The position numbers and the translations under genes are program-made. Of a stretch of 64,000 bases of DNA, positions 3,569 to 60,158 are shown piece after piece. Under the pieces are notes generated by a model, which was not told the DNA's origin, ran no database searches, and saw nothing but the letters and a program-made list of their open reading frames with translations. Every line of letters starts with the position of its first letter. Positions within the stretch are counted from its first letter, which is position 1. Source of the stretch: a phage; the sequence record PX880099.1, one strand, 5' to 3'.

Positions 3569-4200
3569 TTACACTTATTGCGCTGGCTTATTATTAGCAT
3601 TATATGTAATTACCAAGATCATAACATTAGCGCAATAACAATAATCATTGTGGTAATTACGTAAGGAAACAATTAGCATGGCAATAATTATGGGGGCAAT
3701 GGGAGGATGATTATCATCATTCCGATACATTGCACACTATGCACATAATAGAATAAAAAGCAATAATTTTGGGGGCGAAATGTTACCGCCACAGGCGGGA
3801 ATGTTGAGCAAGTTCTCTTAAACGTAAATAAAATCAGAATAATCTTGATTTATTTTAGTTTTTATGTTAATAAACGTTTAAATAATAATCATTCTCATAT
3901 AAATAATAGTCTGCTTGTCATGAGCGGGATTAGTTGACAATGTTCCGTCATATGATGAGGTTGCCAAGCCATTGATAAATAAGTGTTTGTGTGATTTATA
4001 ATCAGGTGGCCCACCTTGTCGCTATGTTGGCATGAGCCTTGCATAAGTCATTGAATACGAATGATAATTATTCTCATTCGCATGATATTTGGGAATTGTC
4101 GCTGCGTGGACCTGACGGCCCGAAAATTCGCGTTAAGCACTTCTTACGTATGCACCATGATTTTTGCCATATCATATTGATTCTATTAGATATTCTTGCC

Positions 4201-4392
4201 ATGATTGCCATGAAACAGGGTGTCCCGAAATAATCTCTCCCCGTAGATATTTTGGGTTACTTTTTATACAAGAGTGGGGTGTCAAAAATAATCGGTATAT
4301 ATGGGATAATTGATAGGAATCCCCTATGATAATTCGATTGTAATTCCCTAAGATTGATCGTATGATGTTGGTGATTAATGATTGCCATGAAA
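4201..4392. repeat. direct repeats upstream of first early gene
   Basis: ATGATTGCCATGAAA at 4201 and 4378; GGGTGTC(CCG/AAA)AAATAATC at 4218 and 4277. Confidence 0.6.
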
Positions 4393-4419
4393 GATGGCTA
4401 ACGATGAGAGGAGATTATC

Positions 4420-4794
4420 ATGCAAGAGAGTAAAAATGTTCCGTTGAGCAGTGCAACATTGCTTCGCTTCTATAAAGCATGGATTGCCAACTATCCTGCA
4501 ATGAATCGCACAACGAGTGGCTTATGTGGTTGTCTGGTAGATTATGTAGATGATTTTGTTGGTGAGACAACTAGAGAAGAAGATAGAAGATGGCGTGATC
4601 ATTTGTTGGACCGTTTGAAATATGAAATGAGGAAACAATTTACATGTGCAGGGTTGGACTACAATCTTCCGTTCAATGCAGATTGCATGGATTACCTTTC
4701 AGAGTGTATAAACTTGGCGTGTCATACCAACACGTTACGTCTTCAATGGGTGAAAGACAGAATTGAAGATGCAAATAATGCTTGCATTGAATAA
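4420..4794 (+). CDS. hypothetical protein, paralog family A (member 1 of 5)
   Basis: SD GAGAGGAGATTATCATG; shares FYKAW..GLCGCL..LPF..WVKDR motifs with 9603, 12928, 16225, 17530. Confidence 0.6.
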   Translation: MQESKNVPLSSATLLRFYKAWIANYPAMNRTTSGLCGCLVDYVDDFVGETTREEDRRWRDHLLDRLKYEMRKQFTCAGLDYNLPFNADCMDYLSECINLACHTNTLRLQWVKDRIEDANNACIE

Positions 4795-4843
4795 AGATGT
4801 TTGTATAATGGATGACATAACAGATAGCCAATGAGGAGATGAA

Positions 4844-5053
4844 ATGAAGAATTTGAAAACTGTCACAATGTTCTTGACTAATCCTACACGTGTGCAAGCA
4901 CTGGCTAAAGCCAGCCGTGTAGCTGTAGAATTCCAAAACTTTAAGCCGTCCGTTGTGACAGGCAGTGAAACGTGTGTTATCGATTTCATTAACGAATACT
5001 TCCGAGGGAATCCGGTTGGTCGTTACTTTATTAAGGGTCTGAAGGATGCATAG
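4844..5053 (+). CDS. hypothetical protein (69 aa)
   Basis: ORF with SD GAGGAGATGAAATG. Confidence 0.5.
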   Translation: MKNLKTVTMFLTNPTRVQALAKASRVAVEFQNFKPSVVTGSETCVIDFINEYFRGNPVGRYFIKGLKDA

Positions 5054-5054
5054 C

Positions 5055-5276
5055 ATGAAACGCATGAAAATTCGTATTGAGAATGATGGTGGTTATAAAG
5101 GACTTACCCGTGCAAAATTCCCACTTGTGTTGGAAGCTACGGTGGAATACAGTGGGCTTGCTCATGTGCGATTCTCGAAGATGATGGAAGTGCAGGAATG
5201 GTTTTGGGACGAGATAGATGCACGAGAAGGGGAAGATTATGTTTTCTTTCCTCACGAATATGAAATTGTTTATTAA
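5055..5276 (+). CDS. hypothetical protein (73 aa)
   Basis: ATG 5055 immediately after upstream stop, SD AAGGA 9 nt upstream; track ORF starts 5046. Confidence 0.45.
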   Translation: MKRMKIRIENDGGYKGLTRAKFPLVLEATVEYSGLAHVRFSKMMEVQEWFWDEIDAREGEDYVFFPHEYEIVY

Positions 5277-5288
5277 AGGTTGTATGCA

Positions 5289-5528
5289 ATGATCACACCA
5301 CAACAAAATGAAGCAGCAATGGATCTTCTTGATAGTTTGTATTTCGATAATTGGTACTCTGAATGTGAATGGATGAATATGCAAACTCTGAAAGAGAAGA
5401 CAAAAGCGTTGATTACAGTAGATCAATTTCTTGCAGAGACGGAAAGAATGAATTATGATATGGCATCTCGCGCACGACGCGTTTCCATTTTCAATAAAAT
5501 GTTAGCATTATGGGGAGGTAGAAAATGA
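5289..5528 (+). CDS. hypothetical protein (79 aa)
   Basis: Track ORF begins at TTG 5280; first ATG at 5289 with SD AAAGG. Confidence 0.45.
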   Translation: MITPQQNEAAMDLLDSLYFDNWYSECEWMNMQTLKEKTKALITVDQFLAETERMNYDMASRARRVSIFNKMLALWGGRK

Positions 5529-5986
5529 GACAATTCACTATACTGGCAGCTTATGTGCAATGTGTTCACGATTATGTTAGTGCTCATACAGGTTTGCTGG
5601 AAGTTACCAGTAAAATTGAAGGTAATATGGGTACTGTCTGTGTGCAACATACTTTATCCAATGTGCCGTTTAAAGTGTTCACTGTTGTAGCTGCCGATTA
5701 CAATCGTGTAGATGTGCGTTTCTTGGATCATAATTTTCGTAACGCACTAGATAATATCGAAGATTATCTTCCCGTGAAACCTTTGTCATTTCCACCAAGT
5801 CGTGCAAATAATGTAGTGACAAATCTTAATGAAAGAAATGTGGCTATGCACAAAAAAGTCCGTCAACTGAAAATGCTGATGGAAATGCAAGAAGAGATTG
5901 AAAAAGAACTGAAAGAAGATTTTGGTATGCTTCCAAAAGACGCTTTGAAATGGTATGATGAACTAGGAGGAGAAAGTTATGAATAA
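5525..5986 (+). CDS. hypothetical protein (153 aa)
   Basis: SD GGGGAGGTAGAAAATG; ATGA overlap with upstream gene. Confidence 0.55.
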   Translation: MRQFTILAAYVQCVHDYVSAHTGLLEVTSKIEGNMGTVCVQHTLSNVPFKVFTVVAADYNRVDVRFLDHNFRNALDNIEDYLPVKPLSFPPSRANNVVTNLNERNVAMHKKVRQLKMLMEMQEEIEKELKEDFGMLPKDALKWYDELGGESYE

Positions 5987-6173
5987 AGGAACTACTGTAT
6001 ATTTAGTGACTAAGAACACCCCAGGTTGGAATCAGTGCACAACGACTCCATATAAGATTTGTGCAACACTGGAACTAGCACAACGTGCAGAAGCGGAAGT
6101 TGATGCTATGCGATACAGCTACGGGGAGATCATTCCTTTCACTCTGGAACAAGAAGGAGCACATAGTGTTTAA
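5979..6173 (+). CDS. hypothetical protein (64 aa)
   Basis: SD AGGAGGAGAAAGTTATG. Confidence 0.5.
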   Translation: MNKGTTVYLVTKNTPGWNQCTTTPYKICATLELAQRAEAEVDAMRYSYGEIIPFTLEQEGAHSV

Positions 6174-6621
6174 GGTAGGGTTTACTTATAAATTCAAAAG
6201 CGTTGCTGACCAAGGAGATATGGCAACACATGACAAAGCAAATATTGCTGTTTGCCAAGCGATTGGAAACGAAGTTTTCAAAGTTATGAATACAGATGAT
6301 AAGTATGGTCATGTTCTTGAGTTTTATATCAATGGTACCCTCTATACAGCAGGTGTTACCCCAGGGTTTAATTCGTATACTTATTTGATTGATAACGAAG
6401 AATTTAAATATTTTGAAGAAGTAAAGGAGGAAACAATGGGTAAAGCAGAACCACAATGGCATGTTGTGATCGTAGGATCAGAGTGTGTAGATGTTTGTTC
6501 TAGTTTTGAAAAAGCTTCTGAAGTCGCTACAAAAGCTAAGAAGGACTATCCGTCGAAGACGGTTGAGATTTACGCTCGTGTTGCAGTAGCAAACGCCACA
6601 ATCACTATTGATAAGGAGTAA
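6166..6621 (+). CDS. hypothetical protein, tandem paralog family B (member 1 of 4)
   Basis: GTG start 6166 after SD GAAGGAG; N-terminus VFKVGFTYKFKS matches the MFKVGF.Y.FKS starts of the next three genes. Confidence 0.5.
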   Translation: MFKVGFTYKFKSVADQGDMATHDKANIAVCQAIGNEVFKVMNTDDKYGHVLEFYINGTLYTAGVTPGFNSYTYLIDNEEFKYFEEVKEETMGKAEPQWHVVIVGSECVDVCSSFEKASEVATKAKKDYPSKTVEIYARVAVANATITIDKE

Positions 6622-6626
6622 AGCCA

Positions 6627-7085
6627 ATGTTCAAAGAAGGTCATGTCTACCGTTTCCAGGATGAGGATTATATGCGACTATATTCTACCTTTGATAACAG
6701 TATTGCGGCTATCATTGGAGAGAATTTTTTCGAGGTGTTGAGCACTGATGCAAATGGTAATATCTTGTCAATGGTTGTAATAGGTATGAGAGATGGTATT
6801 ATCACTGCTGGTGATGGGGATCGTTACATAATCAATTCTGCTCATATAGATTATTTTGTTGACGGTGGTGTTCGTGGTGGTCGTGGAAAACCCCAAGAAG
6901 AACCTGTTGATACGACAAAAGAAGAGTGGTATGTTGTAATGACTGATGACACCTGTATTTCTGGATTTGAAAGTTATGAAGAAGCTTTGAAAGAAGCAGC
7001 AGAGCATAAAATGGCTAATCCTACAGAAGAGGTTGAAGTTTATAAACGTCTGGTTGTTGCTACCATCGGCGTATCTTTTGTTTAA
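6627..7085 (+). CDS. hypothetical protein, paralog family B
   Basis: N-terminus MFKEGHVYRFQD; C-terminal module WYVVM..YEEALKEA..VEVYKRLVV shared with family. Confidence 0.55.
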   Translation: MFKEGHVYRFQDEDYMRLYSTFDNSIAAIIGENFFEVLSTDANGNILSMVVIGMRDGIITAGDGDRYIINSAHIDYFVDGGVRGGRGKPQEEPVDTTKEEWYVVMTDDTCISGFESYEEALKEAAEHKMANPTEEVEVYKRLVVATIGVSFV

Positions 7086-7097
7086 AAGGGGAATGTT

Positions 7098-7883
7098 ATG
7101 TTTAAAGTAGGTTTTGTTTATAATTTCAAATCGGAAGATACCAAAAAGAATTTTGGTAAAGCTAGTATTCGTAACGCTTTCTTTGTAGGTTGCATTCAAG
7201 ATAGCAAGTTTAAAGTTTTAGATGTTGATTTTCTAGGTTCTGTGTCAAAGGTGAAGGTATTAGACACAAATAAGATCATCGAAGGTAGTTCTGGGCTTTT
7301 TCCTGAAGGCTATAAGCTTGTAAGTTGTATAGATTATAGTCGTTTTGAAGAACATCCTCCTGAAGATTATGAGGATTCTCCTACAGGAGGTTGTGTCTTT
7401 GTAGAAGGTGGTGTCTATAAGTTTGCAAGTGAACAAGATCGTAAGCTTTTCGCCAATTATATTGACGGCGGACAAACGACAAACAATGTAAACCGAAAAA
7501 TTTCCGATCTTATTGGAGATGATCCTTTCGTGATCACAAAGATGGTTGGACAAGATGTAACAGCAATCCGTAGGCTTGTATGTAATACAAATCATGTAGC
7601 AGGTGAAGGTTGGTTCAAAGAAGCTTGTGCACTGCTAATCAAAAGCGATAACCCTTACTTTAAAAATATTAAAAATGCTGTTGAGCCTAAACAAGAGGAA
7701 CCCGCAGCGAATTTTAAACACTATGCTATTGTTAAAGGTATGAATGTCCAACTGGTGTCACATTCTTACGAAGAGATCGCCACAGAAGCAAAAAAGATGA
7801 AGGAAGAATACCCAATTTCTACTGTTGAGATCTATGAGCGTATTGGTGTTGTTAGTATTGAGCCTACTGCGGTAATAAAATAA
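7098..7883 (+). CDS. hypothetical protein, paralog family B (261 aa)
   Basis: N-terminus MFKVGFVYNFKS; C-terminal ..YEEIATEAKK..VEIYERIGVV. Confidence 0.55.
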   Translation: MFKVGFVYNFKSEDTKKNFGKASIRNAFFVGCIQDSKFKVLDVDFLGSVSKVKVLDTNKIIEGSSGLFPEGYKLVSCIDYSRFEEHPPEDYEDSPTGGCVFVEGGVYKFASEQDRKLFANYIDGGQTTNNVNRKISDLIGDDPFVITKMVGQDVTAIRRLVCNTNHVAGEGWFKEACALLIKSDNPYFKNIKNAVEPKQEEPAANFKHYAIVKGMNVQLVSHSYEEIATEAKKMKEEYPISTVEIYERIGVVSIEPTAVIK

Positions 7884-7892
7884 GGAGCTATT

Positions 7893-8330
7893 ATGTTCAA
7901 AGCTAATGCTGTTTACTGTTTCAAAAGTAAAGCTGCCTGTGAAGCTTTCTCTGTGATCTCGGATGAAAATTTCAAAATGGCAGCTTTGATTGAAGGGTCT
8001 TGTTTCCGCGTCGAAGATGTTAGTGAATCAGGGTCTGTTTGCTCATTGACTTTATTGGACAGCGGGGATATTATTGAAGCTGGACAGTATCCGTTCAGAA
8101 GTTGGGAGATATTGTTAGCTCGCGGAGAGCGTAACTTTTTTATGTGTGTGTCTGCGGGGGAAGTTGTGAAAGAAACTAATGATGTTTCTGTTTACAATTC
8201 TGAATTTATAAGTTATAGTGAGTATCAACATCTGGAAGGCATTGTTGGTCACTTGTTATCTCTGATTGACGTTGAATGTGACCTGCCTGAATCATTGAAA
8301 GAAGAATTGAAAGCATTAGATCTGTTATAA
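7893..8330 (+). CDS. hypothetical protein, paralog family B (N-terminal domain only)
   Basis: N-terminus MFKANAVYCFKS. Confidence 0.55.
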   Translation: MFKANAVYCFKSKAACEAFSVISDENFKMAALIEGSCFRVEDVSESGSVCSLTLLDSGDIIEAGQYPFRSWEILLARGERNFFMCVSAGEVVKETNDVSVYNSEFISYSEYQHLEGIVGHLLSLIDVECDLPESLKEELKALDLL

Positions 8331-8357
8331 TGTTTCGCACAACGAAAGGAGAATAAG

Positions 8358-8657
8358 ATGAATCTGACCGAACAGTTACGCCGTATTGCAAAAGAAACTT
8401 CCTTCAACTTCCCTGTTGAAGAAGTGATCGAGACATGTTTTGCTGAAGCACGAGCGGGAAACTTTTCAAGGAATTTCACGCCCTCTGATTTTGGTCTGGA
8501 TAATTCCCCTACCCACCCAGGGGAGATCTACAATCAGGTGAAGTGGATGGATGAAGCAGTAGCAATTCTTCGTGAGCGTGGGCTTATTGTTTATAAAGAA
8601 ATGGATCTGAATGGGGCATACGAGTGGATCACTATTGACTGGTCGGAGGTGAAATAA
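8358..8657 (+). CDS. hypothetical protein (99 aa)
   Basis: SD AAAGGAGAATAAGATG. Confidence 0.55.
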   Translation: MNLTEQLRRIAKETSFNFPVEEVIETCFAEARAGNFSRNFTPSDFGLDNSPTHPGEIYNQVKWMDEAVAILRERGLIVYKEMDLNGAYEWITIDWSEVK

Positions 8658-8866
8658 TGGTTACTATCACATTGACAGTTACACAAGAGCAAGCAGAAGA
8701 ATTACGTGATGCAGTAGCATATATGGGGCGCTCTTATTATATGCCTCATAAATCACAAGATGTTTTTGCTACAGCCGTTGAGAAAGCTTTAAACAAATAC
8801 CGAGAAACTCATGCCGTTCCTAAAGTATCAGTAGAAGAGTTTGGCACTTGGCACGAAGTTCACTAA
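8657..8866 (+). CDS. hypothetical protein (69 aa)
   Basis: ATGA-coupled to upstream gene. Confidence 0.5.
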   Translation: MVTITLTVTQEQAEELRDAVAYMGRSYYMPHKSQDVFATAVEKALNKYRETHAVPKVSVEEFGTWHEVH

Positions 8867-8876
8867 GGAGGTTTCG

Positions 8877-9110
8877 ATGAAAGGTAACAAGATGAAAGTT
8901 AATCAGGTACCGAGCGCATACACTCTGTGGCTTGCGCGAGCGTTAAACCAGACGATCAAAAATCCTAAGAAGCCAATGAAGAGTGGGAAGAAGTTTATGT
9001 CTAAGGGCAAAACAACCTTTGGCTTCACTCGTATGTCTGTTAAGATGAAAAGACTGGGGTATAAGCCAAACTACGCTCGTTACCCTTCCGAATACAACTG
9101 GTTTGATTAA
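8877..9110 (+). CDS. hypothetical basic protein (77 aa)
   Basis: ATG 8877 after SD AAGGAGG; Lys/Arg-rich. Confidence 0.5.
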   Translation: MKGNKMKVNQVPSAYTLWLARALNQTIKNPKKPMKSGKKFMSKGKTTFGFTRMSVKMKRLGYKPNYARYPSEYNWFD

Positions 9111-9125
9111 AGAGGAGAACAAAAC

Positions 9126-9410
9126 ATGAAAACATCTATTCGCGTGAAACATGATCCAAACAGCAGTTACCCATACGCGTATGTTGAACGTCATGAAGGA
9201 GACTATTACACCATAAAACGTAAAGTCCCAACTGATACAGGGTTTAACTTCGATGTTATCGCACTGGATGATCAAGGTGTTGATAATCTGGTGAACGCAT
9301 TACTCGCATTGAAGGAAGTACGACATGAAAATCAGACTAAAGGTAAAGTGGCTTTCGATTCTTGTGATCGTTTAGCCGAAGAGATTGCCGAATGGCGTGA
9401 CACTAACTAA
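9126..9410 (+). CDS. hypothetical protein (94 aa)
   Basis: SD AGAGGAGAACAAAACATG. Confidence 0.55.
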   Translation: MKTSIRVKHDPNSSYPYAYVERHEGDYYTIKRKVPTDTGFNFDVIALDDQGVDNLVNALLALKEVRHENQTKGKVAFDSCDRLAEEIAEWRDTN

Positions 9411-9425
9411 AACAGGAGAAAGATT

Positions 9426-9602
9426 ATGGCTACTTTTCAACAACTGAAAGATGTTTCACGTTTAGTAAGAAAAATCCGAGAAGCAGACGCTGCTGTGCGA
9501 AATGCACTAACGCCAGCAGAGCGTGAAGATCTTGAAGAGGAGGTGAAAACAGCCGAGAATGCTTTTGCTGCGTATCTTTCAACACTGTATACAGGAGGTT
9601 AA
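9426..9602 (+). CDS. hypothetical protein (58 aa)
   Basis: SD AGGAGAAAGATTATG; fills gap; below ORF-track cutoff. Confidence 0.45.
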   Translation: MATFQQLKDVSRLVRKIREADAAVRNALTPAEREDLEEEVKTAENAFAAYLSTLYTGG

Positions 9603-9917
9603 ATGTCAGAAGAACTTAAAGAATTTTATCAGGCATATCATAACTGGCTATTAGCTGGTGCTCCAGATAATAATCCTTTCTGGCATGATAAAGGGTTATG
9701 TAGCTGCCTATATCTTTGGTCTGGTGGTTATGATGACCTAAATTATGAAATGCAAATGCAATTCCGCGAAGCAGGTTTGTCTGAAGAATACCCGTTTGAT
9801 GATGGGGATTGGTTTAAATATGATTTTGCACAAAGAAACGGGCTGCTACATTTGAATGCTGCTCGTATAAAATGGGTAAAAGATCATGTCACACAGGAGG
9901 ATGTGCAATGCCTATAG
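9603..9917 (+). CDS. hypothetical protein, paralog family A (member 2)
   Basis: FYQAYHNWLLAGAPDNNPF..GLCSCL..IKWVKDH. Confidence 0.6.
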   Translation: MSEELKEFYQAYHNWLLAGAPDNNPFWHDKGLCSCLYLWSGGYDDLNYEMQMQFREAGLSEEYPFDDGDWFKYDFAQRNGLLHLNAARIKWVKDHVTQEDVQCL

Positions 9918-10108
9918 TGTTTGTTTTCTTGGCAATTGTTATGGTGGTTCTTTTCGCTGTATGGCTTTGGGATTTTGACCCAGGAGCCGCGCAGCAAAGA
10001 GCTACAGACTTGAAAGAACAATGTATTGTGCTCAAACATGAACGAAATGCGGAGAAATTTCTTGACCTGGAGTGTGATCGCCTTGTAAGATACAAGCAAG
10101 ATAAATAA
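9908..10108 (+). CDS. small membrane protein (66 aa)
   Basis: ATG 9908 after SD AGGAGG; TM segment IVFVFLAIVMVVLFAVWLW. Confidence 0.5.
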   Translation: MPIVFVFLAIVMVVLFAVWLWDFDPGAAQQRATDLKEQCIVLKHERNAEKFLDLECDRLVRYKQDK

Positions 10109-10122
10109 CCTTGAGGTGCAAA

Positions 10123-10311
10123 ATGGTAATTGAGATTAAACTTGAATATGCTGGGGCTGTTGCCTTGATCGCACAAATGCTTGGAGCAAAGATTGAAGAA
10201 GTGTATATCAACGCCTGGAGCGTAGAGATTGATGTTCCTATGGACAACATTGCTAATCGCTTGCTGGTGGCAGAGTGTGAACGCACCAACATAATCTACA
10301 AAGGAACATAA
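10123..10311 (+). CDS. hypothetical protein (62 aa)
   Basis: ATG 10123 after SD GAGGTG. Confidence 0.45.
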   Translation: MVIEIKLEYAGAVALIAQMLGAKIEEVYINAWSVEIDVPMDNIANRLLVAECERTNIIYKGT

Positions 10312-10312
10312 T

Positions 10313-10534
10313 ATGAAAATTAGAGTTTGTGATGTATTGGGTTATGTTGGTTTTGAGAATGTTCAGATTCCTTTTGTTGTTGAAGCACATCTTGTTAGTG
10401 AGGATATGACAACATTCTTTGTTACGATAGAAGAAATGTCCAAAGTTGAGGGATGGGAGTGGTTTGAAGAAGATGTTTGGGAAGGTTGTGATTACGTATT
10501 TTTCTCTGACGAAGTGAATGTTCTTGCGGAGTAG
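10313..10534 (+). CDS. hypothetical protein (73 aa)
   Basis: ORF directly abutting upstream stop. Confidence 0.5.
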   Translation: MKIRVCDVLGYVGFENVQIPFVVEAHLVSEDMTTFFVTIEEMSKVEGWEWFEEDVWEGCDYVFFSDEVNVLAE

Positions 10535-10536
10535 GT

Positions 10537-10743
10537 ATGTCTTGTTTTACAAAAGCAGTCTCCATATGTAAGAAACAGTATGAAAGTGATTACGGAATAT
10601 TTAATATTCCAGTAGATCATACAGTGTATTGTTCATGTGGTGGCAGAATGAAGAAAACAGTGATTTATGCGGATAATGGAGATGAACTTGTTCCAGTTAT
10701 GGTTTGCAAAGCTTGTCATTCTGTTAAAACATTAAAAGCGTAA
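10537..10743 (+). CDS. zinc-ribbon protein (68 aa)
   Basis: CSCGG...CKAC cysteine pairs. Confidence 0.5.
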   Translation: MSCFTKAVSICKKQYESDYGIFNIPVDHTVYCSCGGRMKKTVIYADNGDELVPVMVCKACHSVKTLKA

Positions 10744-10839
10744 GGAGTCGGGACACCCGACGATTGGAGCTAAAAATTTTGCGTACAACCCTTTCCGCCC
10801 AACAGGGGGCGCATCGGGTAAACAAAGAGGAGAGTTTAT

Positions 10840-11238
10840 ATGAAAAAGATTATCGTAGGTTTATTGTTACTCATTGCATCTCTTGGAACAGCGAATGCAT
10901 CTCAAGTTTATGAGTGTGTATCAGACGTAGTTGTTAAAAATCTGAAAGGTGAAGTGATTTCTGGTCCTAAGAAAATGGCTTCTGTTGTCATTAATAAAGA
11001 CAACTCCTTTATCCTTAAAAATTCGGGTGGTGCTTTGATGAGCGGTATTCTTCAAAACACAGGAGGAAAGAGTAAAGATGGAAGTTCTATGTACGGTTCA
11101 CAGCAGTTTATTGGCACTACCGAAGTTGTGATGATGCGCACAGAGTATCGAGATACTTTAGCTTGGTTTGCATTTCTAAAAAATGATAAAACAATAACGA
11201 ATGTTCTTACTCTAGAAGCTGATTGTACGCAACGATAA
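10840..11238 (+). CDS. secreted protein with signal peptide (132 aa)
   Basis: MKKIIVGLLLLIASLGTANA signal-like N-terminus; SD AGAGGAGAG. Confidence 0.55.
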   Translation: MKKIIVGLLLLIASLGTANASQVYECVSDVVVKNLKGEVISGPKKMASVVINKDNSFILKNSGGALMSGILQNTGGKSKDGSSMYGSQQFIGTTEVVMMRTEYRDTLAWFAFLKNDKTITNVLTLEADCTQR

Positions 11239-11246
11239 GGGGATTT

Positions 11247-11693
11247 ATGACTAAAGTGAGGCATTACGCTGTAAACTGCAACGATGCTTGGCGTTTGTGT
11301 CCTGATGATCCGACAGAAGGCACATTTGTAAGATATGAGGATTATAAAGAGTTATCGGATGCTGTGATCGCATTGTTAACTGATATCCGTTCACGTTATC
11401 CAGGACAAGATTTCACTTGCCCTCACATCAAACTTCTTGCTTGTCTGGTAGAAGGTGAGAAAGAAGTGGAAGATGGCTTCAAGCGTGTAGAGTATCAAGG
11501 TGAAACTTTAGAGGTTCCTGAATTTGTTAATTATATTGCAACAGATTCGAGTGGCGAGCGTTATGGCTACAGCCATAAGCCAGAGATTCCTGATTGGATT
11601 CCCGCTTGGAGATATTCCGTTAGGACCGGAGACTATATCTTCCTTGGTGTAGGTAGTAGTAAGGATTGGCGTTTCTCTTTGACAGAGGTTTAA
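11247..11693 (+). CDS. hypothetical protein (148 aa)
   Basis: ATG 11247 after SD AAGGGGA; track start is TTG 11223. Confidence 0.5.
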   Translation: MTKVRHYAVNCNDAWRLCPDDPTEGTFVRYEDYKELSDAVIALLTDIRSRYPGQDFTCPHIKLLACLVEGEKEVEDGFKRVEYQGETLEVPEFVNYIATDSSGERYGYSHKPEIPDWIPAWRYSVRTGDYIFLGVGSSKDWRFSLTEV

Positions 11694-11697
11694 TAAT

Positions 11698-11961
11698 ATG
11701 GAAGAAACATTACCAGCAGCATATCGTTTGAATGATGAGCGTATTTGGGAGTGGACCGACGTTTCTTGTTTTTACCCTGAAATAGTTCAGTATTGGCGAG
11801 CGAAAGGGTGTGTTGTAGTTATCAACCCTTGTGGACCAGTGGATGAAGATTGCTTGTATCTCGATGGAAAGTGGCACAGTTATTGTCGCTGGCCTTTTGA
11901 GTGGATGTGTAAAGAAGATCTCCCAGAGGGTTGGGAGTATCCAAAAGCAAATAGGAGATAA
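11698..11961 (+). CDS. hypothetical Cys-rich protein (87 aa)
   Basis: ORF; several Cys/Trp. Confidence 0.5.
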   Translation: MEETLPAAYRLNDERIWEWTDVSCFYPEIVQYWRAKGCVVVINPCGPVDEDCLYLDGKWHSYCRWPFEWMCKEDLPEGWEYPKANRR

Positions 11962-11962
11962 T

Positions 11963-12325
11963 ATGTCTAAAGATTTTGTTGAAGTGTTTGTCAAAGATGA
12001 AGAAACTGGTTTAGGCACGGGTTTCATTTGTGAAGAAACTTTTAAACGTGAACAAGAAAAAGCTATCCTTATGCGAAACTATGATCATGCACTAGAACAA
12101 TGGAAAAATGCAGAACAAAAATGCAAAAACCTTTATGCAGAAAATAGAAAACTACAAGATCAAATGGAGTTGTTAGCTATCAGTTTACGATCTCTCATTT
12201 TGGCTGTAGAAGATGGTTTTAAAAATCCAGATGGTTTTCCTGTGAGCGATATTGAACATGATTTGTATCTTGCTCGTGGTGCTTACTTTTATGTTAAACA
12301 GAAGTCTGTAGAAGGAGAGAAGTGA
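11963..12325 (+). CDS. hypothetical coiled-coil protein (120 aa)
   Basis: ATG 11963 after SD AGGAGATAAT. Confidence 0.5.
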   Translation: MSKDFVEVFVKDEETGLGTGFICEETFKREQEKAILMRNYDHALEQWKNAEQKCKNLYAENRKLQDQMELLAISLRSLILAVEDGFKNPDGFPVSDIEHDLYLARGAYFYVKQKSVEGEK

Positions 12326-12522
12326 TGGAAGAAAAACTGGAACGTATTATCGAGTTAGCCATGTCTATTGGCTACGACGATTGTTTTCTCCAAACTATTG
12401 GAGAAACACAGAACGATTACGACTCTTGGGTGAAAGAGTTGGAAGAACTCAAAACTTCCTTGATTGCTGACTTTGCTGAAGCAGAGGATAAAGCGGATCG
12501 TTACAACTATCTGTGTCGATAA
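12322..12522 (+). CDS. hypothetical protein (66 aa)
   Basis: ATGA-coupled. Confidence 0.5.
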   Translation: MMEEKLERIIELAMSIGYDDCFLQTIGETQNDYDSWVKELEELKTSLIADFAEAEDKADRYNYLCR

Positions 12523-12525
12523 ACC

Positions 12526-12553
12526 TTGACATTTCTTTTATGTATGGTATACA
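12526..12553 (+). promoter_or_regulatory. sigma70-like promoter (TTGACA-16-TATACA)
   Basis: TTGACA 12526-12531; TATACA 12548-12553. Confidence 0.5.
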
Positions 12554-12583
12554 TACATTATCAACACAGATAAGGAGAGAAAA

Positions 12584-12928
12584 ATGATTAAACTCTTATG
12601 TGCAGAGTCTTCTGTCGAGTTCCTTAAAGAGGGTAAGCAGTATCTAGCTTCCCAAGTTATAGATAATCCAGGTTTGTTTTATATTACAGACGAAGAAGGG
12701 GATACCCTGTGTATCTCTTTGATTATGGATTGTGGTCGGTTTCATGTAATTGAGGATGACACTATTCGTCTCTTTGAGGTTTCCTACACAAAAGACAATG
12801 GTCCTGTCCGTAAATATCAAATTCCAGCAAAATCCGCCTTTAACGCATGTGTACGATTAGGTCAAATCTACGGGGACGATAAAGATTGTCGTGAAGATGT
12901 ATTTATCAACGTGATCGAGGTAAAATAA
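12584..12928 (+). CDS. hypothetical protein (114 aa)
   Basis: SD AAGGAGAGAAAAATG. Confidence 0.55.
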   Translation: MIKLLCAESSVEFLKEGKQYLASQVIDNPGLFYITDEEGDTLCISLIMDCGRFHVIEDDTIRLFEVSYTKDNGPVRKYQIPAKSAFNACVRLGQIYGDDKDCREDVFINVIEVK

Positions 12929-13254
12929 TGAAAACAAGTAAAGATTTGATGGAGTTTTATAAAATTTATCTAGCATGGATTGATGTTGGTGCTCCTGATG
13001 GTAAACCTTTTCGGCGGGATTGTGGTTTGTGTGCCAACTTGTTCGATTATGTGCACAGAGGTAATTACAACCCCATTATAACAACCTTGTCAGATGAAAT
13101 GCACGCACAGTTTTACCATAAAGGGTTGAATCAAGGACTCCCTTTCAATGAGAACTACGATGCATATGTCTTAGAGTCAGATGCAGATGCCTGTCACCTG
13201 AACGTGGACAGAATTAATTGGGTAAGAGATCGTATTGCAGAGGAGGATGAATAA
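12928..13254 (+). CDS. hypothetical protein, paralog family A (member 3)
   Basis: FYKIYLAWIDVGAPDGKPF..GLCANL..INWVRDR. Confidence 0.6.
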   Translation: MKTSKDLMEFYKIYLAWIDVGAPDGKPFRRDCGLCANLFDYVHRGNYNPIITTLSDEMHAQFYHKGLNQGLPFNENYDAYVLESDADACHLNVDRINWVRDRIAEEDE

Positions 13255-13481
13255 TGTCGGATTATAACTGGTATGAACTTGAAGCTGTTTGTCAGTTTTA
13301 TGATTCAATAGTTCTACGTGATCCAATCTGTCAAGAATTGAGTCGCCGTGCAAGTGCATTGGCAATCCGTGTTAAAATAAATGGTTGGAACCCAGACTTG
13401 GAAAAAGAGTTGGAATTTCTCTTAGAAACAACACGTGTCTTCCACAAAGTGTTCCCTGAATGGTTTGAGATGGAAGAATGA
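13254..13481 (+). CDS. hypothetical protein (75 aa)
   Basis: Translationally coupled ORF. Confidence 0.5.
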   Translation: MSDYNWYELEAVCQFYDSIVLRDPICQELSRRASALAIRVKINGWNPDLEKELEFLLETTRVFHKVFPEWFEMEE

Positions 13482-13699
13482 TCATGTGGATTGTGCGTCT
13501 TAAGTATGATGGCCCTAATCCTTGGGTGAGAACAGTTTGCGGATGTGATACTAAAGAGTCAGCAGATAAAGCTGGAAGAATGATAAGTGCCTTTTATAAT
13601 AGTAAACCTCTTTGTTTAGAAATGTCTGGTGTGGTTTGTATGAGCATGTTCGAATACTACTCTTATGAGATCAAAGAACACCAAGGAGAATGGAAATAA
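13478..13699 (+). CDS. hypothetical protein (73 aa)
   Basis: Coupled ORF. Confidence 0.45.
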   Translation: MIMWIVRLKYDGPNPWVRTVCGCDTKESADKAGRMISAFYNSKPLCLEMSGVVCMSMFEYYSYEIKEHQGEWK

Positions 13700-13703
13700 A
13701 TCG

Positions 13704-13732
13704 TTGACAGAAGGATCTGTCTTTGTCATAAT
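13704..13732 (+). promoter_or_regulatory. sigma70-like promoter (TTGACA-17-CATAAT)
   Basis: TTGACA 13704-13709; CATAAT 13727-13732. Confidence 0.5.
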
Positions 13733-13761
13733 CATCTCATCGAAACAAAGAGGAGAAAATC

Positions 13762-14175
13762 ATGAAAAAGTTTATTTGCACCCGTTCCACTAACAGTGAT
13801 ATCCTTGTAGGTAAGGTTATCAAAGGAGAACTCTTCCATGCAAACGGTAAGAAATATATTCTGCTGAAAGATTCTTTCAACGGGGAATATCCGCGCTGCA
13901 CTTTCTTCAATTACAACACTCCGTTTGCTTTAGAAGGAGATGCTTGGGAATGGGCTGAACTCAATCCTTGTTGTGAGGAAGAAGAATCTATGTTCTTAGG
14001 TTTAAACGTTTACCGTGTAGATTACACCATGTGCGGAGCGGAACATTCTGTTCGCGTAGAAGCCGAATCCAAACTACAAGCACCTTTCAAGGCAGGATTG
14101 ACTTTGGGTCATTGTTTGGCAAACATTGAAGATGTTGTGATCCAAAGAGTTGTTTTAGAGAAAGAGGCTATTTGA
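13762..14175 (+). CDS. hypothetical protein (137 aa)
   Basis: SD AAAGAGGAGAAAATCATG. Confidence 0.55.
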   Translation: MKKFICTRSTNSDILVGKVIKGELFHANGKKYILLKDSFNGEYPRCTFFNYNTPFALEGDAWEWAELNPCCEEEESMFLGLNVYRVDYTMCGAEHSVRVEAESKLQAPFKAGLTLGHCLANIEDVVIQRVVLEKEAI

Positions 14176-14227
14176 GAGAAGACGGCACAATATTTAAATA
14201 TAAAGATTAACCACAAAGGAGATAGAT

Positions 14228-14527
14228 ATGCAAGTTGAAGACCTGATCAAAATTTTGAATGAAGCCAAAGAGAAAGGTGCTATCAAGGACTGGAAACGTG
14301 AAACAAGTGAAGACCTATCTCACTGTTGCCGAGAATTTTACATCGAAGGTATTGCTAACGATCATTATACTATTGAATGGTATATTAACTTAATGACTCT
14401 TAAACACGGTTCATTTGAGGTTTGGTTTGATGACATTGATGTAAATGGTTTTCATCCTGGCTATAAAATCGCTATGCAGTTATCTTATCGTAGAGAAGTT
14501 GTAGCACATTTGGGTTTACATAACTAA
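14228..14527 (+). CDS. hypothetical protein (99 aa)
   Basis: SD AAAGGAGATAGATATG. Confidence 0.55.
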   Translation: MQVEDLIKILNEAKEKGAIKDWKRETSEDLSHCCREFYIEGIANDHYTIEWYINLMTLKHGSFEVWFDDIDVNGFHPGYKIAMQLSYRREVVAHLGLHN

Positions 14528-14537
14528 GGAGAAAAGA

Positions 14538-14861
14538 ATGCAAGCAGTTGTTAACGAAGCTATTATGAACTTATCCTTCTTGTTAGCTGGTTTAGGAGGT
14601 GTTCTCATAGGTTTGGCTCTTATCTGGTGTATTCGTCGATTAATCGGGTACCGACAAAAAGGTGTTTCATGTTTTGTATCTTACAATTTTACAACTGCTT
14701 ACAGCAATGAGGTTGGATCTGGTAATGCTCAAGCATTTTTACCAACATATCCTCCTACGGTGGAAGATATTCGAAACTTGGAAGTAGAACTTATGGGACT
14801 AAGTGATAACTATACATCTCTCGTTATTCAAAATATTTTTCGACTAAAACAGGAGGCGTGA
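14538..14861 (+). CDS. membrane protein (107 aa)
   Basis: TM segment LSFLLAGLGGVLIGLALIWCI. Confidence 0.5.
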   Translation: MQAVVNEAIMNLSFLLAGLGGVLIGLALIWCIRRLIGYRQKGVSCFVSYNFTTAYSNEVGSGNAQAFLPTYPPTVEDIRNLEVELMGLSDNYTSLVIQNIFRLKQEA

Positions 14862-15074
14862 ATGAAGGCACATTACCCTCATCCCTTTGATCCTAAAAAC
14901 AAAGCCGTAATTCTTCGTCAGTGGCAACGGGTTTGTCGTACTAAATGTCCAATTAATAGCCAACACAATGTGGACAAGGACTATCTTGGGACATTTGTTG
15001 AATACACTTACATAGACAAAAACAAGCGTAAACAACATGTCGAGGAATACTGTTTAAGAGTAGAATGGCTGTAA
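14862..15074 (+). CDS. hypothetical protein (70 aa)
   Basis: Coupled ORF. Confidence 0.5.
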   Translation: MKAHYPHPFDPKNKAVILRQWQRVCRTKCPINSQHNVDKDYLGTFVEYTYIDKNKRKQHVEEYCLRVEWL

Positions 15075-15086
15075 ATAATAAATACC

Positions 15087-15115
15087 TTGACAAGTGTTTA
15101 TTCGTTTTGTAAAGT
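15087..15115 (+). promoter_or_regulatory. sigma70-like promoter (TTGACA-17-TAAAGT)
   Basis: TTGACA 15087-15092; TAAAGT 15110-15115. Confidence 0.5.
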
Positions 15116-15144
15116 GAGAATACAGCAATGGTTTAGGAGTGGTT

Positions 15145-15816
15145 ATGAAAAAGTTTGTTGTTTACAGTCGTCTTTCTAAACAGAAAAAAGGTGAGGCACA
15201 ATATGGTATGGAGAGCCAAGAGAATGATATCCGTTACTTCTTAGACTCTGTGCCTGATGCGGAAGTTATTGGTCAATTTTCTGAATACTATTCTGGTAAG
15301 GGCGATTGGAAGCAACGTAAGGAACTGGTTAAAGCGGTTGAAATGTGTAAAGCTACCGGAGCAACTTTATTGGTAGCTAAAGTTGACCGCTTGGGTCGTA
15401 ACAACGCCTCCGTAGCAACTCTTCTGGAGATGATCGATGTTAAGATAGCCATCATGCCAGACGCAGATAAAATGGTTATACAGCTTCTATCTGTTCTGGC
15501 TGAACAAGAAGTTAGAGGTATTGCTGATCGTATTAAAAAGGGTCTTGCTGTAGCAAAAAGTAAAGGTGTTTTATTAGGTAGTGCTAATCCTAAAACTGCC
15601 GCTGCACGTAGAAAAGGAAAAATGGAATACAACTCTGTTAAAGCAGACGCTTTTGCAGAGACATTCCGTGAACGCTTGGAGATCCTTAGAGATTTAAATA
15701 CACCTTACAAAACTATTGCTGAAAAATTCAATAGTAAGAAAATAGCAACAGCACGTGGTGGTAAATGGGATGCTAAAACTGTTTCTCGTTTGTGTGCCAG
15801 ACTTAACATTAAATAG
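15145..15816 (+). CDS. serine recombinase (resolvase/invertase family)
   Basis: N-terminal catalytic motifs VVYSRLSKQKKGE...G.ESQ and LLVAKVDRLGRN; C-terminal recombinase-like segment GGKWDAKTVSRL. Confidence 0.8.
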   Translation: MKKFVVYSRLSKQKKGEAQYGMESQENDIRYFLDSVPDAEVIGQFSEYYSGKGDWKQRKELVKAVEMCKATGATLLVAKVDRLGRNNASVATLLEMIDVKIAIMPDADKMVIQLLSVLAEQEVRGIADRIKKGLAVAKSKGVLLGSANPKTAAARRKGKMEYNSVKADAFAETFRERLEILRDLNTPYKTIAEKFNSKKIATARGGKWDAKTVSRLCARLNIK

Positions 15817-15824
15817 GAGAGGAT

Positions 15825-16235
15825 ATGAAACAAGAAAATGAATCTGTAGATCACTTAATCATGCTGTCAACCCTTTTTGCCGGATGGGACGTATTTTTTG
15901 AAAATTTGTTCAATTCTGCTACAGATGGTTCCGATTTTATGCGGCAGTTTAAACGACGAACTGTTGAGGACTATGCTTTCTATTCAGGTCGGATTGAAAA
16001 AGGTTACGAAGATACAAATACAACACTCACCATTAAAGTTTTAGATGTGATGTTTAGTGTTATAGATGCTATCGACGAAAGTCTTCCGATCCTGGACAAT
16101 TGTAATACGAAAGCCTATGTTTACAAAATAGCCCGTGCTTATGTGTCTGCAAACAGTTGTCTTCTTTCCACGCAGATTGCCGTGAACAATCTTGCCAACT
16201 TGTTCGACGAAGGAGAAACTTTTTATGACAATTGA
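15825..16235 (+). CDS. hypothetical protein (136 aa)
   Basis: SD AGGAGAGGATATG. Confidence 0.55.
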   Translation: MKQENESVDHLIMLSTLFAGWDVFFENLFNSATDGSDFMRQFKRRTVEDYAFYSGRIEKGYEDTNTTLTIKVLDVMFSVIDAIDESLPILDNCNTKAYVYKIARAYVSANSCLLSTQIAVNNLANLFDEGETFYDN

Positions 16236-16590
16236 TTTGAAGTGTAAAAGGATTCTTTTAGATTTCTATAATAATTGGTTAGAACACCTCCGTCTCTTTC
16301 CAAGAGAAAGTGGTTACGCTGATGTTGGCTTATGCCGAGGTCTACGTATGTATATAAGTGATGAATTTCGGGCCGAGCATTCTTTAGCATATTCTGTTTA
16401 TGGTATGCAATTAGCCAGTTTTGAAAACGCTGGCTTAGATACAACTTTCCCATTTAACACAGCAAAATCTTTTGAGCAAGAGTGTAAGGAAAAACGTTGC
16501 ATGTTTAATGAAAAACGTGTACAGTGGGTTAAGGATCGAGTTAAACAACTGGAACAAGAGTTGGATTTCTTCTATGATGAGGCAGAATAA
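16225..16590 (+). CDS. hypothetical protein, paralog family A (member 4)
   Basis: ATG 16225 after SD AGGAGA; LLDFYNNWL..GLCRGL..FPF..VQWVKDR. Confidence 0.55.
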   Translation: MTIDLKCKRILLDFYNNWLEHLRLFPRESGYADVGLCRGLRMYISDEFRAEHSLAYSVYGMQLASFENAGLDTTFPFNTAKSFEQECKEKRCMFNEKRVQWVKDRVKQLEQELDFFYDEAE

Positions 16591-16862
16591 TGGATAGACA
16601 AACCTTAAAAACAATGGCAGATGCCACTAATTCCCCGTACTTTGAAAAAGTAAGTAAATTGGTAGCTCAAGCCGCAGAGGAAGGATATTATAACATAAAC
16701 ATCCACAACCCAAGTCTTATACTAGAAATGCCAAGTGATAAGAAGATACAAGAAAGTATCTGTGAAGGTATTGTTAGTTACTGGCGCGAGCGTGGGTGTG
16801 GTGCAAACATGGCTTTAGACAGTGCAAACATTGTAAGATATATAAATATTTCTTGGGGGTGA
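16590..16862 (+). CDS. hypothetical protein (90 aa)
   Basis: ATGA-coupled. Confidence 0.5.
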   Translation: MDRQTLKTMADATNSPYFEKVSKLVAQAAEEGYYNINIHNPSLILEMPSDKKIQESICEGIVSYWRERGCGANMALDSANIVRYINISWG

Positions 16863-16866
16863 TTTT

Positions 16867-17478
16867 ATGATTCAATGCACTCATATCCAAATTACTTGGA
16901 GAGATGAACTTTACCATTTGGGACAATTTACTGTAGGGGAAACATACCCTATCATTAAACATAATCCTAACATCGCAAACTTTGACAGGATGGTTCTTGT
17001 TGAGGACGATCTAGGTCAAACTTATTCTTTAGATCTAAAATATCCGTTTTCTTACGGCTACGATTGGATCGTTACTTTTGAAGACGTGGAGGAAAATAAA
17101 ACAATGAACGAAAAAAATTCTTGGTATTATCGTTGTGAACTGCCGCCAGTAGGTGAAAAGGTTATCTTTGTTCCTGATTTGGAAAGATATTCTTGGGACA
17201 GTTCTTATTCTGTTCCTAAAGAAGGCACCGAAGTTGAAGTTATTGCACATCGCACAACTTCGCATGGTAACGATGTAGCAGTTGTTTTCTGGGATGATGA
17301 AGGCGCTGCTTGTGCAGGTGGCTTTGTTGCAGGTAATTTTGAACCCCTGCCAGATCCTTTGAAGGAGGCAATTTTAGGCGTAGCTTCTTTTGGACTCTCT
17401 TACACATCTGCACAGGAGATCGTAGAAGGTATTTTAAACGGTACCGTTCCAAACGAAATTTTCAAACAGATTAAATAA
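16867..17478 (+). CDS. hypothetical protein (203 aa)
   Basis: ORF with no competing frame. Confidence 0.55.
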   Translation: MIQCTHIQITWRDELYHLGQFTVGETYPIIKHNPNIANFDRMVLVEDDLGQTYSLDLKYPFSYGYDWIVTFEDVEENKTMNEKNSWYYRCELPPVGEKVIFVPDLERYSWDSSYSVPKEGTEVEVIAHRTTSHGNDVAVVFWDDEGAACAGGFVAGNFEPLPDPLKEAILGVASFGLSYTSAQEIVEGILNGTVPNEIFKQIK

Positions 17479-17484
17479 CAGTTG

Positions 17485-17510
17485 CACCCCGTTCTTCGGG
17501 GTGTTATTGT
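17485..17510 (+). terminator. hairpin CACCCCGTTCTTCGGGGTG + TTATTGT
   Basis: 7-bp stem with UUCU loop, weak U tract. Confidence 0.45.
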
Positions 17511-17529
17511 ATACGTAAAGGAGGAGATA

Positions 17530-17868
17530 ATGTATTACACTGAAGACTACATACTGTATAACTTTTTTAAAGGCTGGTTGAAATGGGCTGAACAAGCTCC
17601 TGTCGGAGATTGTGTTTTTCCTTGGGATTCTCGTCAAGGTTTGTGTCGTTGTTTGGAAGATTGGCTTATAACCACAAACTACAACTCAGAAACTAAGAAA
17701 TCTACATCACAGAGACTAAAAATGTTATTTGAAGAAGATGGTTTAGATCCGATTTATCCTTTCGGTGAGGAAAGTTTCCACAATGGTCTTTTCCTTGGCA
17801 CTCAACATTATGATAAAGATCGTGTAGATTGGGTAAAAGAAAAGGTAGCACAGTATGAATGGGGTTAA
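17530..17868 (+). CDS. hypothetical protein, paralog family A (member 5)
   Basis: ATG 17530 after SD AAGGAGGAG; FFKGWLKWAEQAP..GLCRCL..YPF..VDWVKEK. Confidence 0.55.
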   Translation: MYYTEDYILYNFFKGWLKWAEQAPVGDCVFPWDSRQGLCRCLEDWLITTNYNSETKKSTSQRLKMLFEEDGLDPIYPFGEESFHNGLFLGTQHYDKDRVDWVKEKVAQYEWG

Positions 17869-18058
17869 GAATTATCACCGCTGGTTAGAAAGCTATCTTA
17901 AGAAATGTGAACTTGGTGTTCCAGGTTATACTTACGACACGGACGAGATTCTTGATGAAATGGAAGTTTGGTTTAAAGAGCCTCGTGAACTATTGGCAAA
18001 TATTCTAATGGCTTGGGATGGTACGGCACAAAGCATCGGAGGAGGTAGAAATGAGTAA
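17855..18058 (+). CDS. hypothetical protein (67 aa)
   Basis: Overlapping coupled ORF. Confidence 0.45.
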   Translation: MNGVKNYHRWLESYLKKCELGVPGYTYDTDEILDEMEVWFKEPRELLANILMAWDGTAQSIGGGRNE

Positions 18059-22633: not shown

Positions 22634-23449
22634 TTATTTGTTTAAGTGGTCTTCGACCATTTTAATGAAACCTTCATTGCTGAAGGCTGTTGCAGCTTTT
22701 TCTCGGTAAACAAAAACTCCACGATCTTCATAGAGAAGTGTTTCTTCGTAATTAACTCCAGGGTTAACTACAACCATTTTTGTACCCATACTAAGCGCAG
22801 GGAATAATTCCCAATTAAAATTGATAACTTGGTTTGAACATCCTACTACTACAACCAAATCTTGCATGGTCAAAGTATCGAACAAGTGAGCCATATCTGC
22901 ATACAAAGGTGCAGCCTCACCAAAAAATACAACATTAGGCTTCACCCAGTTATAATCATCTATGTTTATACTATTGTAACCAATATCTACCAGTGTTTTG
23001 TAATCTCCAGGATGCATACGGTAAACTACTTCAGGAAGATATCCGTGCACGTGAATAACAGAATCTCTGTCTACACCTGCTCGCTCTAATAGATCATCAA
23101 CGTTTGTCGTCAAGTTTACTACTTGGTTAGGATATTCCTTAAACCACTTTGCTATTTGAATATGTGCAGCATTAGGTTGTACATCTTTAAGCTCAACACG
23201 TCTTTTGTTATAAAATTCGTGTGTTTTGGCATACAAATCCATACCGTTCTCGTCTACACCACCGACCACTGGAAGATCTGGAGATGTTCTAACACGATAA
23301 CCTGCTTGGAAAGCTCCAATATCGCAGACCTCTTCTAAATCATATTCTTCCCATAAGGCACGACCACTATCGGTGTCTGTTCGGAATGTTCTAATCCCAC
23401 TATCTGCACTTAAACCTGCACCGCTTACAAAAATCACTCGTCTTGGCAT
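22634..23449 (-). CDS. Sir2-family (sirtuin-like) protein
   Basis: VIFVSGAGLSADSGIRTFR (GAG..SGI.TFR), TTNVDDLLERAG (TQN.D.LHERAG-like), VIHVHG; no internal Zn-ribbon cysteines seen. Confidence 0.65.
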   Translation of the reverse strand: MPRRVIFVSGAGLSADSGIRTFRTDTDSGRALWEEYDLEEVCDIGAFQAGYRVRTSPDLPVVGGVDENGMDLYAKTHEFYNKRRVELKDVQPNAAHIQIAKWFKEYPNQVVNLTTNVDDLLERAGVDRDSVIHVHGYLPEVVYRMHPGDYKTLVDIGYNSINIDDYNWVKPNVVFFGEAAPLYADMAHLFDTLTMQDLVVVVGCSNQVINFNWELFPALSMGTKMVVVNPGVNYEETLLYEDRGVFVYREKAATAFSNEGFIKMVEDHLNK

Positions 23450-59676: not shown

Positions 59677-59751
59677 GGCCCTGTAGCTCAATGGGAGAGC
59701 TGTCGGCTCATAACCGATAGGTAGCTGGATCGAAACCAGCCAGGGCCACCA
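59677..59751 (+). tRNA. tRNA-Met (CAT), elongator type or Ile-lysidine
   Basis: Hand-folded cloverleaf: acceptor GGCCCTG/CAGGGCC, anticodon loop CTCATAA, T-arm GCTGG-ATCGAAA-CCAGC, CCA encoded. Confidence 0.75.
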
Positions 59752-59753
59752 AC

Positions 59754-60059: not shown

Positions 60060-60062
60060 TAT

Positions 60063-60153: not shown

Positions 60154-60158
60154 GATTA

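Follow-up and report, generated by a model that had tools for sequence, protein, structure and literature searches.

The 64,000-nucleotide stretch of phage DNA analyzed here (PX880099.1; hereafter the window) contains five paralogous genes, A1 to A5, which sit in a long same-strand run of small, tightly packed open reading frames (ORFs). All are on the plus strand, at 4420–4794 (A1, 124 amino acids, isoelectric point (pI) 5.2), 9603–9917 (A2, 104 amino acids, pI 4.5), 12928–13254 (A3, 108 amino acids, pI 4.8), 16225–16590 (A4, 121 amino acids, pI 5.3) and 17530–17868 (A5, 112 amino acids, pI 4.7). Their products are small (~105–125 amino acids), cytoplasmic and uniformly acidic (pI 4.5–5.3, against a median of 5.2 for the family to which they belong), and no membrane or secretion features were found in the five window copies. 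Sequence comparison points to anciently diverged members of one large phage family, each of which is held by purifying selection.

The initial annotation placed the five ORFs at 4420, 9603, 12928, 16225 and 17530 on the plus strand; all of these coordinates are correct, and the starts agree with the annotation of 97%-identical phages. Each ATG lies 5–9 nt downstream of a Shine-Dalgarno sequence (GAGAGGAG for A1, CAGGAGG for A2, GAAGGAG for A4 and AAGGAGGAG for A5), and the genes abut or overlap their neighbors by 1–14 nt: A2 abuts the gene before it and shares 10 nt with the one after it, and A3 overlaps each neighboring gene by a single base. Longer readings from TTG codons were considered for A4 (16192) and A5 (17482) and were rejected. 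In A4, the Shine-Dalgarno sequence and public annotation fit the ATG at 16225. In A5, the longer reading is occupied by a G+C-rich, terminator-like hairpin on the plus strand (17484–17504; GCACCCCG-TTCTT-CGGGGTGT, followed by T-rich sequence) that would fall inside the 5′ extension, and the ATG at 17530 is therefore taken as the start; the record of the related phage Schickermooser annotates a terminator at the matching place. Upstream of the studied region, at 2893–2913, a perfect 8-bp G+C-rich hairpin with T-runs on both strands resembles a bidirectional terminator.

Homology and motifs of A1 to A5

Pairwise BLASTP relates the five copies at E values of 2e-4 to 1e-21 (23–39% identity), and an all-against-all BLASTP comparison of the window ORFs recovers the same five as one cluster. 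Their alignment contains 16 invariant columns. The profile hidden Markov model (HMM) of PHROG 2510 matches every copy over its full length (profile positions ~4–113), with E values of 2.3e-25 (A1), 4e-29 (A2), 3.4e-32 (A3), 2.2e-26 (A4) and 4.1e-27 (A5); A3 is the copy closest to the family consensus and A5 is the most divergent. A six-frame translation of the 64 kb window, searched with an HMM of the five, contained no sixth copy (next match, E 0.11). Multiple alignment, BLASTP and the PHROG 2510 HMM thus agree on a single family with positionally conserved motifs, as had been proposed from inspection of the ORFs.

The motifs originally listed are essentially correct, with three amendments. 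G-L-C-x-x-L and [LYF]-P-F are present in all five copies. The N-terminal F-Y-x-x-W is present, its true form in the alignment being F-[YF]-x-x-[WY]; GAPD-x-x-PF is found in A2 and A3 only; and the C-terminal motif reads V-D-W-V-K-E-K in A5. Two motifs missing from that list, E-M-x-x-Q-F-x-x-A-G-L and H-x-N-x-x-R, are as conserved across the wider family, in which the ordered set is F-Y, W, G-L-C-x-N-L, E-M-x-x-Q-F-x-x-A-G-L, P-F-N and H-x-N-x-x-R-x-x-W-V. Over 126 diverse sequences including the five window copies (residue numbering as in A3), F10, C35, P72, F73 and R95 are invariant, and L7, Y11, W17, G33, L34, Q61, F62, L67, N92, W98 and V99 are at least 90% conserved. Copy-specific exceptions are the absence of the His of H-x-N-x-x-R from A4 and, in A5, D in place of N92 and F in place of Y11.

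Given the purifying selection that acts on them, their Shine-Dalgarno sites and the confident structure models described below, the five ORFs are real genes. The same three observations, together with independent profile matches at E values down to 1e-32 and the existence of 1,719 related clusters, make it practically inconceivable that the shared motifs arose by chance or that the ORFs are not genes, and we regard that explanation as already refuted.

Selection, age and copy number

Approximately 180 phage records match window bases 4000–18000, and these bases are 96–98% identical over >90% of their length to Phapecoctavirus genomes such as vB_EcoM_REC, vB_Ec-G1, phAPEC8_ev052 and ukendt. The window is a Phapecoctavirus, a phAPEC8-like coliphage; the matched genomes are those of E. 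coli myoviruses of ~150 kb in the Stephanstirmvirinae. Across ten Phapecoctavirus genomes, orthologues of the five copies are 88–100% identical, much like neighboring genes. The ratio of nonsynonymous to synonymous substitution rates (dN/dS), estimated gene-wide by the pooled Nei-Gojobori method (NG86) over 11 genomes (the window plus the ten), is 0.21 for A1, 0.017 for A2, 0.41 for A3, 0.052 for A4 and 0.074 for A5, with a regional median of ~0.11. Each copy is under purifying selection, A2 being the most constrained copy and A3, with the highest dN/dS in the block, its least constrained gene. The substitutions in A3 fall in the N-terminus, in the loop between helices 2 and 3 (H2–H3 loop; residues 44–51), scattered over residues 60–70 and at 86–88, and never in the conserved motifs.

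Identity between the paralogues is 21–38% over the trimmed alignment, which equals the divergence between different phage families. Each copy is nearer to many outside family members than to its co-resident paralogues, which rank 11th to 117th of 117 comparators, and in a neighbor-joining tree the common ancestor of the five copies spans all 118 sampled sequences. These relationships indicate that the copies are ancient lineages and that no recent burst produced them.

The initial annotation had read the expansion to five copies as a sign of diversifying selection; taken in full, this reading is one of a recent, lineage-specific expansion whose copies diverge under positive selection. The dN/dS of A3, with its changes concentrated in one loop, and a repertoire that differs strongly between sub-lineages (see below) would both fit such a history. 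However, all gene-wide dN/dS values are below 1, three are at most 0.074, and the copies are not one another's nearest relatives, their identities being as low as those between phage families. We therefore consider this history improbable and, at the level of whole genes, largely refuted; the loop-focused variation of A3 and the turnover of the repertoire leave room for local or episodic selection.

Five is not the usual family count in this phage group. The window, G1 and ukendt have five copies; phAPEC8_ev052, REC, Schickermooser, Ro121lw, KKP 3954 and ESCO25 have six; ECO340P1 and Mt1B1_P17 have seven; and the more distant PsgM04F has ten, including a tandem triplet. In the complete ukendt genome, no copies were found outside the small-ORF block. 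One missing copy has left a trace in the window. An extra upstream copy, A0, which is intact in REC, supplied the DNA upstream of A1 and the first ~10 codons of the gene, and the remainder is A1: the window DNA is identical to the REC A0 promoter and 5′ end up to the shared CCGTTGAG(C/T)AGT (P-L-S-S) codons and follows A1 thereafter. A0 was lost from the window, G1, ukendt and Ro121lw through recombination between tandem paralogues at 12 nt of microhomology (window 4300–4460; locus L006, 420–1242), and A1 of the window is a deletion chimera of the two. On alignment, the database protein P0016 appears to be a second, independent chimera, with a later breakpoint near codon 75.

The best identities in PsgM04F are 82% for A3, 95% for the extra copy A3b, 64% for A1, 51% for A2 and at most 35% for A4 and A5, whereas some flanking genes are 93–98% identical in the related contig L004, and the repertoire is therefore subject to turnover from one sub-lineage to another. 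Recombination between copies, gain and loss all alter the copy number, and the presence of 5, 6, 7 or 10 copies in related genomes, together with the loss of A0 from the window, makes the copies individually dispensable.

Several other features of the window lie near the copies or share their behavior. Strand composition (GC skew) divides the window into a plus-strand block to ~22 kb, a minus-strand block to ~58 kb and then a plus-strand tRNA cluster, which comprises 14 tRNA genes at 59677–62500 (plus strand) and precedes the structural module; only 10 tRNAs are annotated in the corresponding part of the ukendt record. The minus-strand block includes a Vs.4-like gene (27245–27517) whose protein is 100% identical to ukendt_144, labelled in pVOG as a vs.4 gene product; T4 Vs.4 belongs to the Acb2 anti-CBASS sponge family. 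It also encodes a SIR2-family protein (67% identity to its ukendt counterpart) and a Dcm methyltransferase, the pair occupying 22637–23449 and 24640–25320, both on the minus strand.

On the plus strand, four tandem paralogues at 6085–8330 (6085/6166–6621, 6627–7085, 7098–7883 and 7893–8330) open with MFK-x-G-x-VY-F, are called 'goF mRNA metabolism modulator' in some records and vary in number between relatives. A second two-copy family (5046–5276 and 10313–10534, plus strand; 37% identity, E 2e-10; pVOG VOG6032 in ukendt) has its members two genes downstream of A1 and three genes downstream of A2, respectively, a placement that hints at an old segmental duplication of a block comprising an A copy plus VOG6032. 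Inside the small-ORF block, a serine recombinase gene (15139–15816, plus strand) has a dN/dS of 0.009 and is among the most constrained genes there. It is labelled variously as a DNA invertase, a resolvase or, wrongly, an ABC transporter ATP-binding protein, and is truncated in Schickermooser; on the metagenomic contig L017, a resolvase accompanies an eight-domain cluster.

The family in other phages

Among 1.84 billion cluster representatives, searched exhaustively by profile, there are 1,719 relatives at E ≤ 1e-3, each a cluster at 50% identity, and 750 at E ≤ 1e-10; among the best 150 cluster representatives, ~20 are tandem fusions of two to three domains. A word-indexed protein search, even when given a profile of 126 sequences, contributed few further relatives and none that carried a name, and a profile scan of viral contigs yielded two loci only. 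With A3 as the query, tblastn located the family in 262 phage records, which include phages of Escherichia, Klebsiella, Rhizobium, Achromobacter, Salmonella, Erwinia, Ralstonia, Pseudomonas, Delftia and others. One of these matches falls on a gene annotated 'gp3 [Escherichia phage N4]' (E 3e-7, 32% identity), and the family HMM matches an N4-type gene at E 1.6e-24. The family thereby spans N4-like, phiKMV-like and T1-like phages as well as large myoviruses.

In everything sampled, the family is confined to phages and phage-like elements. One member (NZ_CP148392.1, 49153–49632; locus L022; 40% identity to A3) is encoded in the accessory region of a P1-like phage-plasmid of 92.8 kb, so virulent phages are not the only carriers of the family; nearby are Phd/Doc and genes of the PAPS-reductase family and of DUF2829. 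Orthologues of A3 also occur in records named for hosts outside the Enterobacteriaceae, namely Campylobacter phage B15 (MG065650, 98%), Acinetobacter phage ABPW7 (OP562383, 88%) and Pseudomonas phage PsgM04F (OR584014, 82%); possible explanations are mislabelled hosts, contamination and an unexpectedly broad host range.

The genomic position of the family recurs between groups. In N4-type genomes, whose early genes have been described (PMC4496689), the family gene directly follows gp1 and gp2 in the left-end early region, before the RNAPII genes, and in an N4-like contig it has the Gp1/Gp2 genes on one side and an RNA polymerase gene on the other. ORF5 of the phiKMV-like Ralstonia phage RSB1 and gp5 of Burkholderia phage JG068 are family members in a left-end block. 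Annotated host promoters and a terminator delimit this block in JG068, and the family genes lie downstream of host promoters. These homologues and the long same-strand run of small ORFs support the initial suggestion that the five copies sit in what looks like an early or host-takeover block. N4 gp3, RSB1 ORF5 and JG068 gp5 share with the window copies their family, a similar size and an early or left-end position; they differ in being present as one copy each, in contrast to 5–10 in phAPEC8-like phages, and have no described function. In the window, high-scoring sigma-70-like sites lie mostly on the plus strand, and their total count is not above that of shuffled sequence.

On an N4-like metagenomic contig the 3′ part of a DUF4326 gene and the family gene overlap, and in N4-type genomes DUF4326 is found ~2 kb downstream of gp3 (loci L016, 7112–8327, and L003, 2892–3260); DUF4326 may be a recurrent neighbor. 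An anti-signalling hotspot of N4-like phages (bioRxiv 10.64898/2026.06.04.730250) was considered as an explanation and rejected, because it sits between the virion RNA polymerase and the primase-polymerase and not in the left-end region; a phage transposon-sequencing (Tn-seq) preprint, to judge from its outline, has no bearing on the PHROG 2510 family.

Public records annotate all five copies as hypothetical proteins. Their orthologues in ukendt (MN850565; ukendt_83, 96, 107, 116 and 119) are 97–100% identical to the window copies and all carry the label pVOG VOG7392, from which we infer that the window copies belong to the same group; a multi-copy family is therefore already implicit in GenBank. 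The five are ordinary members of PHROG 2510, with weaker matches to PHROGs 6418, 27059 and 2176, and longer and tandem family members match the same profiles; as PHROG 2510 carries no function, membership in it explains nothing. No copy reached a gathering score in Pfam or NCBIfam (best matches at chance level, E 0.014–0.066), and the PADLOC defence profiles gave no real match (only PifA with A1, at a chance-level E of 0.02). The family was not recognized at the outset, and no assigned function was found in the databases or literature searched: it is already catalogued in GenBank, PHROG and pVOG, without a function, a fold assignment or a literature.

Predicted fold and possible functions

AlphaFold2 models of A3 (predicted local distance difference test (pLDDT) score 91.9, predicted template modeling (pTM) score 0.84) and A5 (pLDDT 94.0, pTM 0.88), whose sequences are ~26% identical, have the same order of elements, with helix 1 followed by a short beta-hairpin and helices 2–5. 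The copies are thus predicted to share a common five-helix fold. In BFVD, a library of predicted viral structures, only uncharacterized phage proteins match (template modeling (TM) scores 0.75–0.86), two of them in each of phiW-14, BcepSaruman, CHA_P1 and PAO1_Ab04. Sequence-profile searches of the PDB with narrow and broad alignments gave chance matches only, and PDB searches found no sequence or fold similarity to solved anti-defence proteins or nucleotide sponges. In the A3 model, Cys35 is at the start of helix 2, and the conserved motifs lie at helix starts and in the H3–H4 loop. A metal site comprising Cys35, Cys89 and His90 was considered and rejected, as Cys89 is only 47% conserved and His90 is 77% conserved and missing in A4.

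The explanation that we favor, with rather less than even confidence, is that A1 to A5 are early accessory proteins, dispensable to the phage, which bind factors of the host or of its defences. Each copy would probably be made early in infection, to judge only from its position, and would probably act by binding rather than by catalysis. A conserved helical core would carry a fixed polar cluster (Cys35, Glu57, Gln61, Asn92 and Arg95), and the variable H2–H3 loop and H4 region would give each copy its own partner, either a host takeover target or an anti-phage defence protein. Fusions of two or three domains in tandem, present in other phages, hint that the domains may function next to one another or in oligomers. 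In life-style only, the copies resemble Ocr, Acb2/Vs.4, Tad1/Tad2 and anti-CRISPRs, which are likewise small, acidic accessory proteins of early or accessory regions that are variably present among close relatives. They differ from these in that neither their sequence nor their structure resembles that of a solved protein, and, to our knowledge, known small anti-defence inhibitors do not usually occur as 5–10 diverged copies per genome.

A number of observations weigh against binding of host or defence factors. The strong purifying selection on A2, A4 and A5 is atypical of arms-race binders. A Foldseek comparison of the model with the PDB gave nothing better than E 2.5, and Pfam and PHROG scans of longer relatives revealed no informative fused domain. 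Literature searches on the PHROG and pVOG identifiers, N4 gp3 and Phapecoctavirus anti-defence functions found nothing and no characterized homologue, nor was a transcriptome covering these genes found in the literature; early timing is predicted from gene position. Finally, the conservation of Cys35 and Arg95 (both 100%), Asn92 (94%) and Gln61 (93%) is at least as readily explained by a fixed ligand or active site as by a structural role.

This last point leads to the main alternative, which we consider unlikely, in which the proteins are enzymes or small-molecule binders, for example sponges of nucleotide immune signals or thiol-dependent enzymes, with the invariant Cys and Arg95 and the near-invariant Asn92 and Gln61 forming one fixed site and the paralogues differing in ligand or substrate. 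These polar residues are 93–100% conserved over 118–126 diverse members in which mean column identity is only 17%, the placement of the conserved motifs at helix starts and in the H3–H4 loop is compatible with a site, and the tandem fusions would fit oligomeric sponges. Aromatic residues and arginine are typical of nucleotide pockets. However, neither the sequence nor the fold is similar to a solved sponge or enzyme, the His beside the proposed site is replaced in A4 and in about one quarter of members, and helical periodicity would place Cys35, Leu38 and residue 41 on one face, where they may be mere core residues. Moreover, the phage already carries the Vs.4-like gene at 27245–27517.

Somewhat less probable still is that the proteins serve the phage's own program, for example as cofactors or regulators of transcription, of replication or of the early-to-middle switch. 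Such a role would accord with the position of N4 gp3 directly after gp1 and gp2, the cofactors of N4 RNAPII, with the strong conservation of A2, A4 and A5, and with the occurrence of the family in many virulent phage groups. It is harder to reconcile with a copy number that ranges from 1 to 10 and with the loss of copies without loss of viability, and transcription is organized very differently among the phages that carry the family (N4-like, phiKMV-like, T1-like and large myoviruses); in addition, the proteins are acidic and have no match to a DNA-binding fold.

A more speculative proposal, to which we attach only a low likelihood, concerns the family as a whole. Here the N4 gp3-like domain would be a modular scaffold of new fold for immune antagonists across many virulent phages of Proteobacteria, and each of the 5–10 copies in phAPEC8-like phages would neutralize its own host defence, whether it binds a defence protein or uses the conserved Cys/Arg/Asn/Gln site to sequester a signalling nucleotide particular to that copy. 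The family would then rank among the largest anti-defence families that are still uncharacterized.

The family is large; several groups of virulent phages that are unrelated to one another, one of them represented by the model phage N4, carry it in early or left-end regions, and it has no Pfam entry or structural relative. The 5–10 diverged, individually conserved copies in one phage constitute a natural set of variants for finding the partner of the domain. If the copies are host-takeover or anti-defence factors, thousands of hypothetical phage proteins could be annotated from one series of experiments, and the result would help to explain the host range of phAPEC8-like therapeutic phages. 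Even otherwise the result would be of use, since the block is an ordinary multigene family under purifying selection and no hotspot of positive selection.

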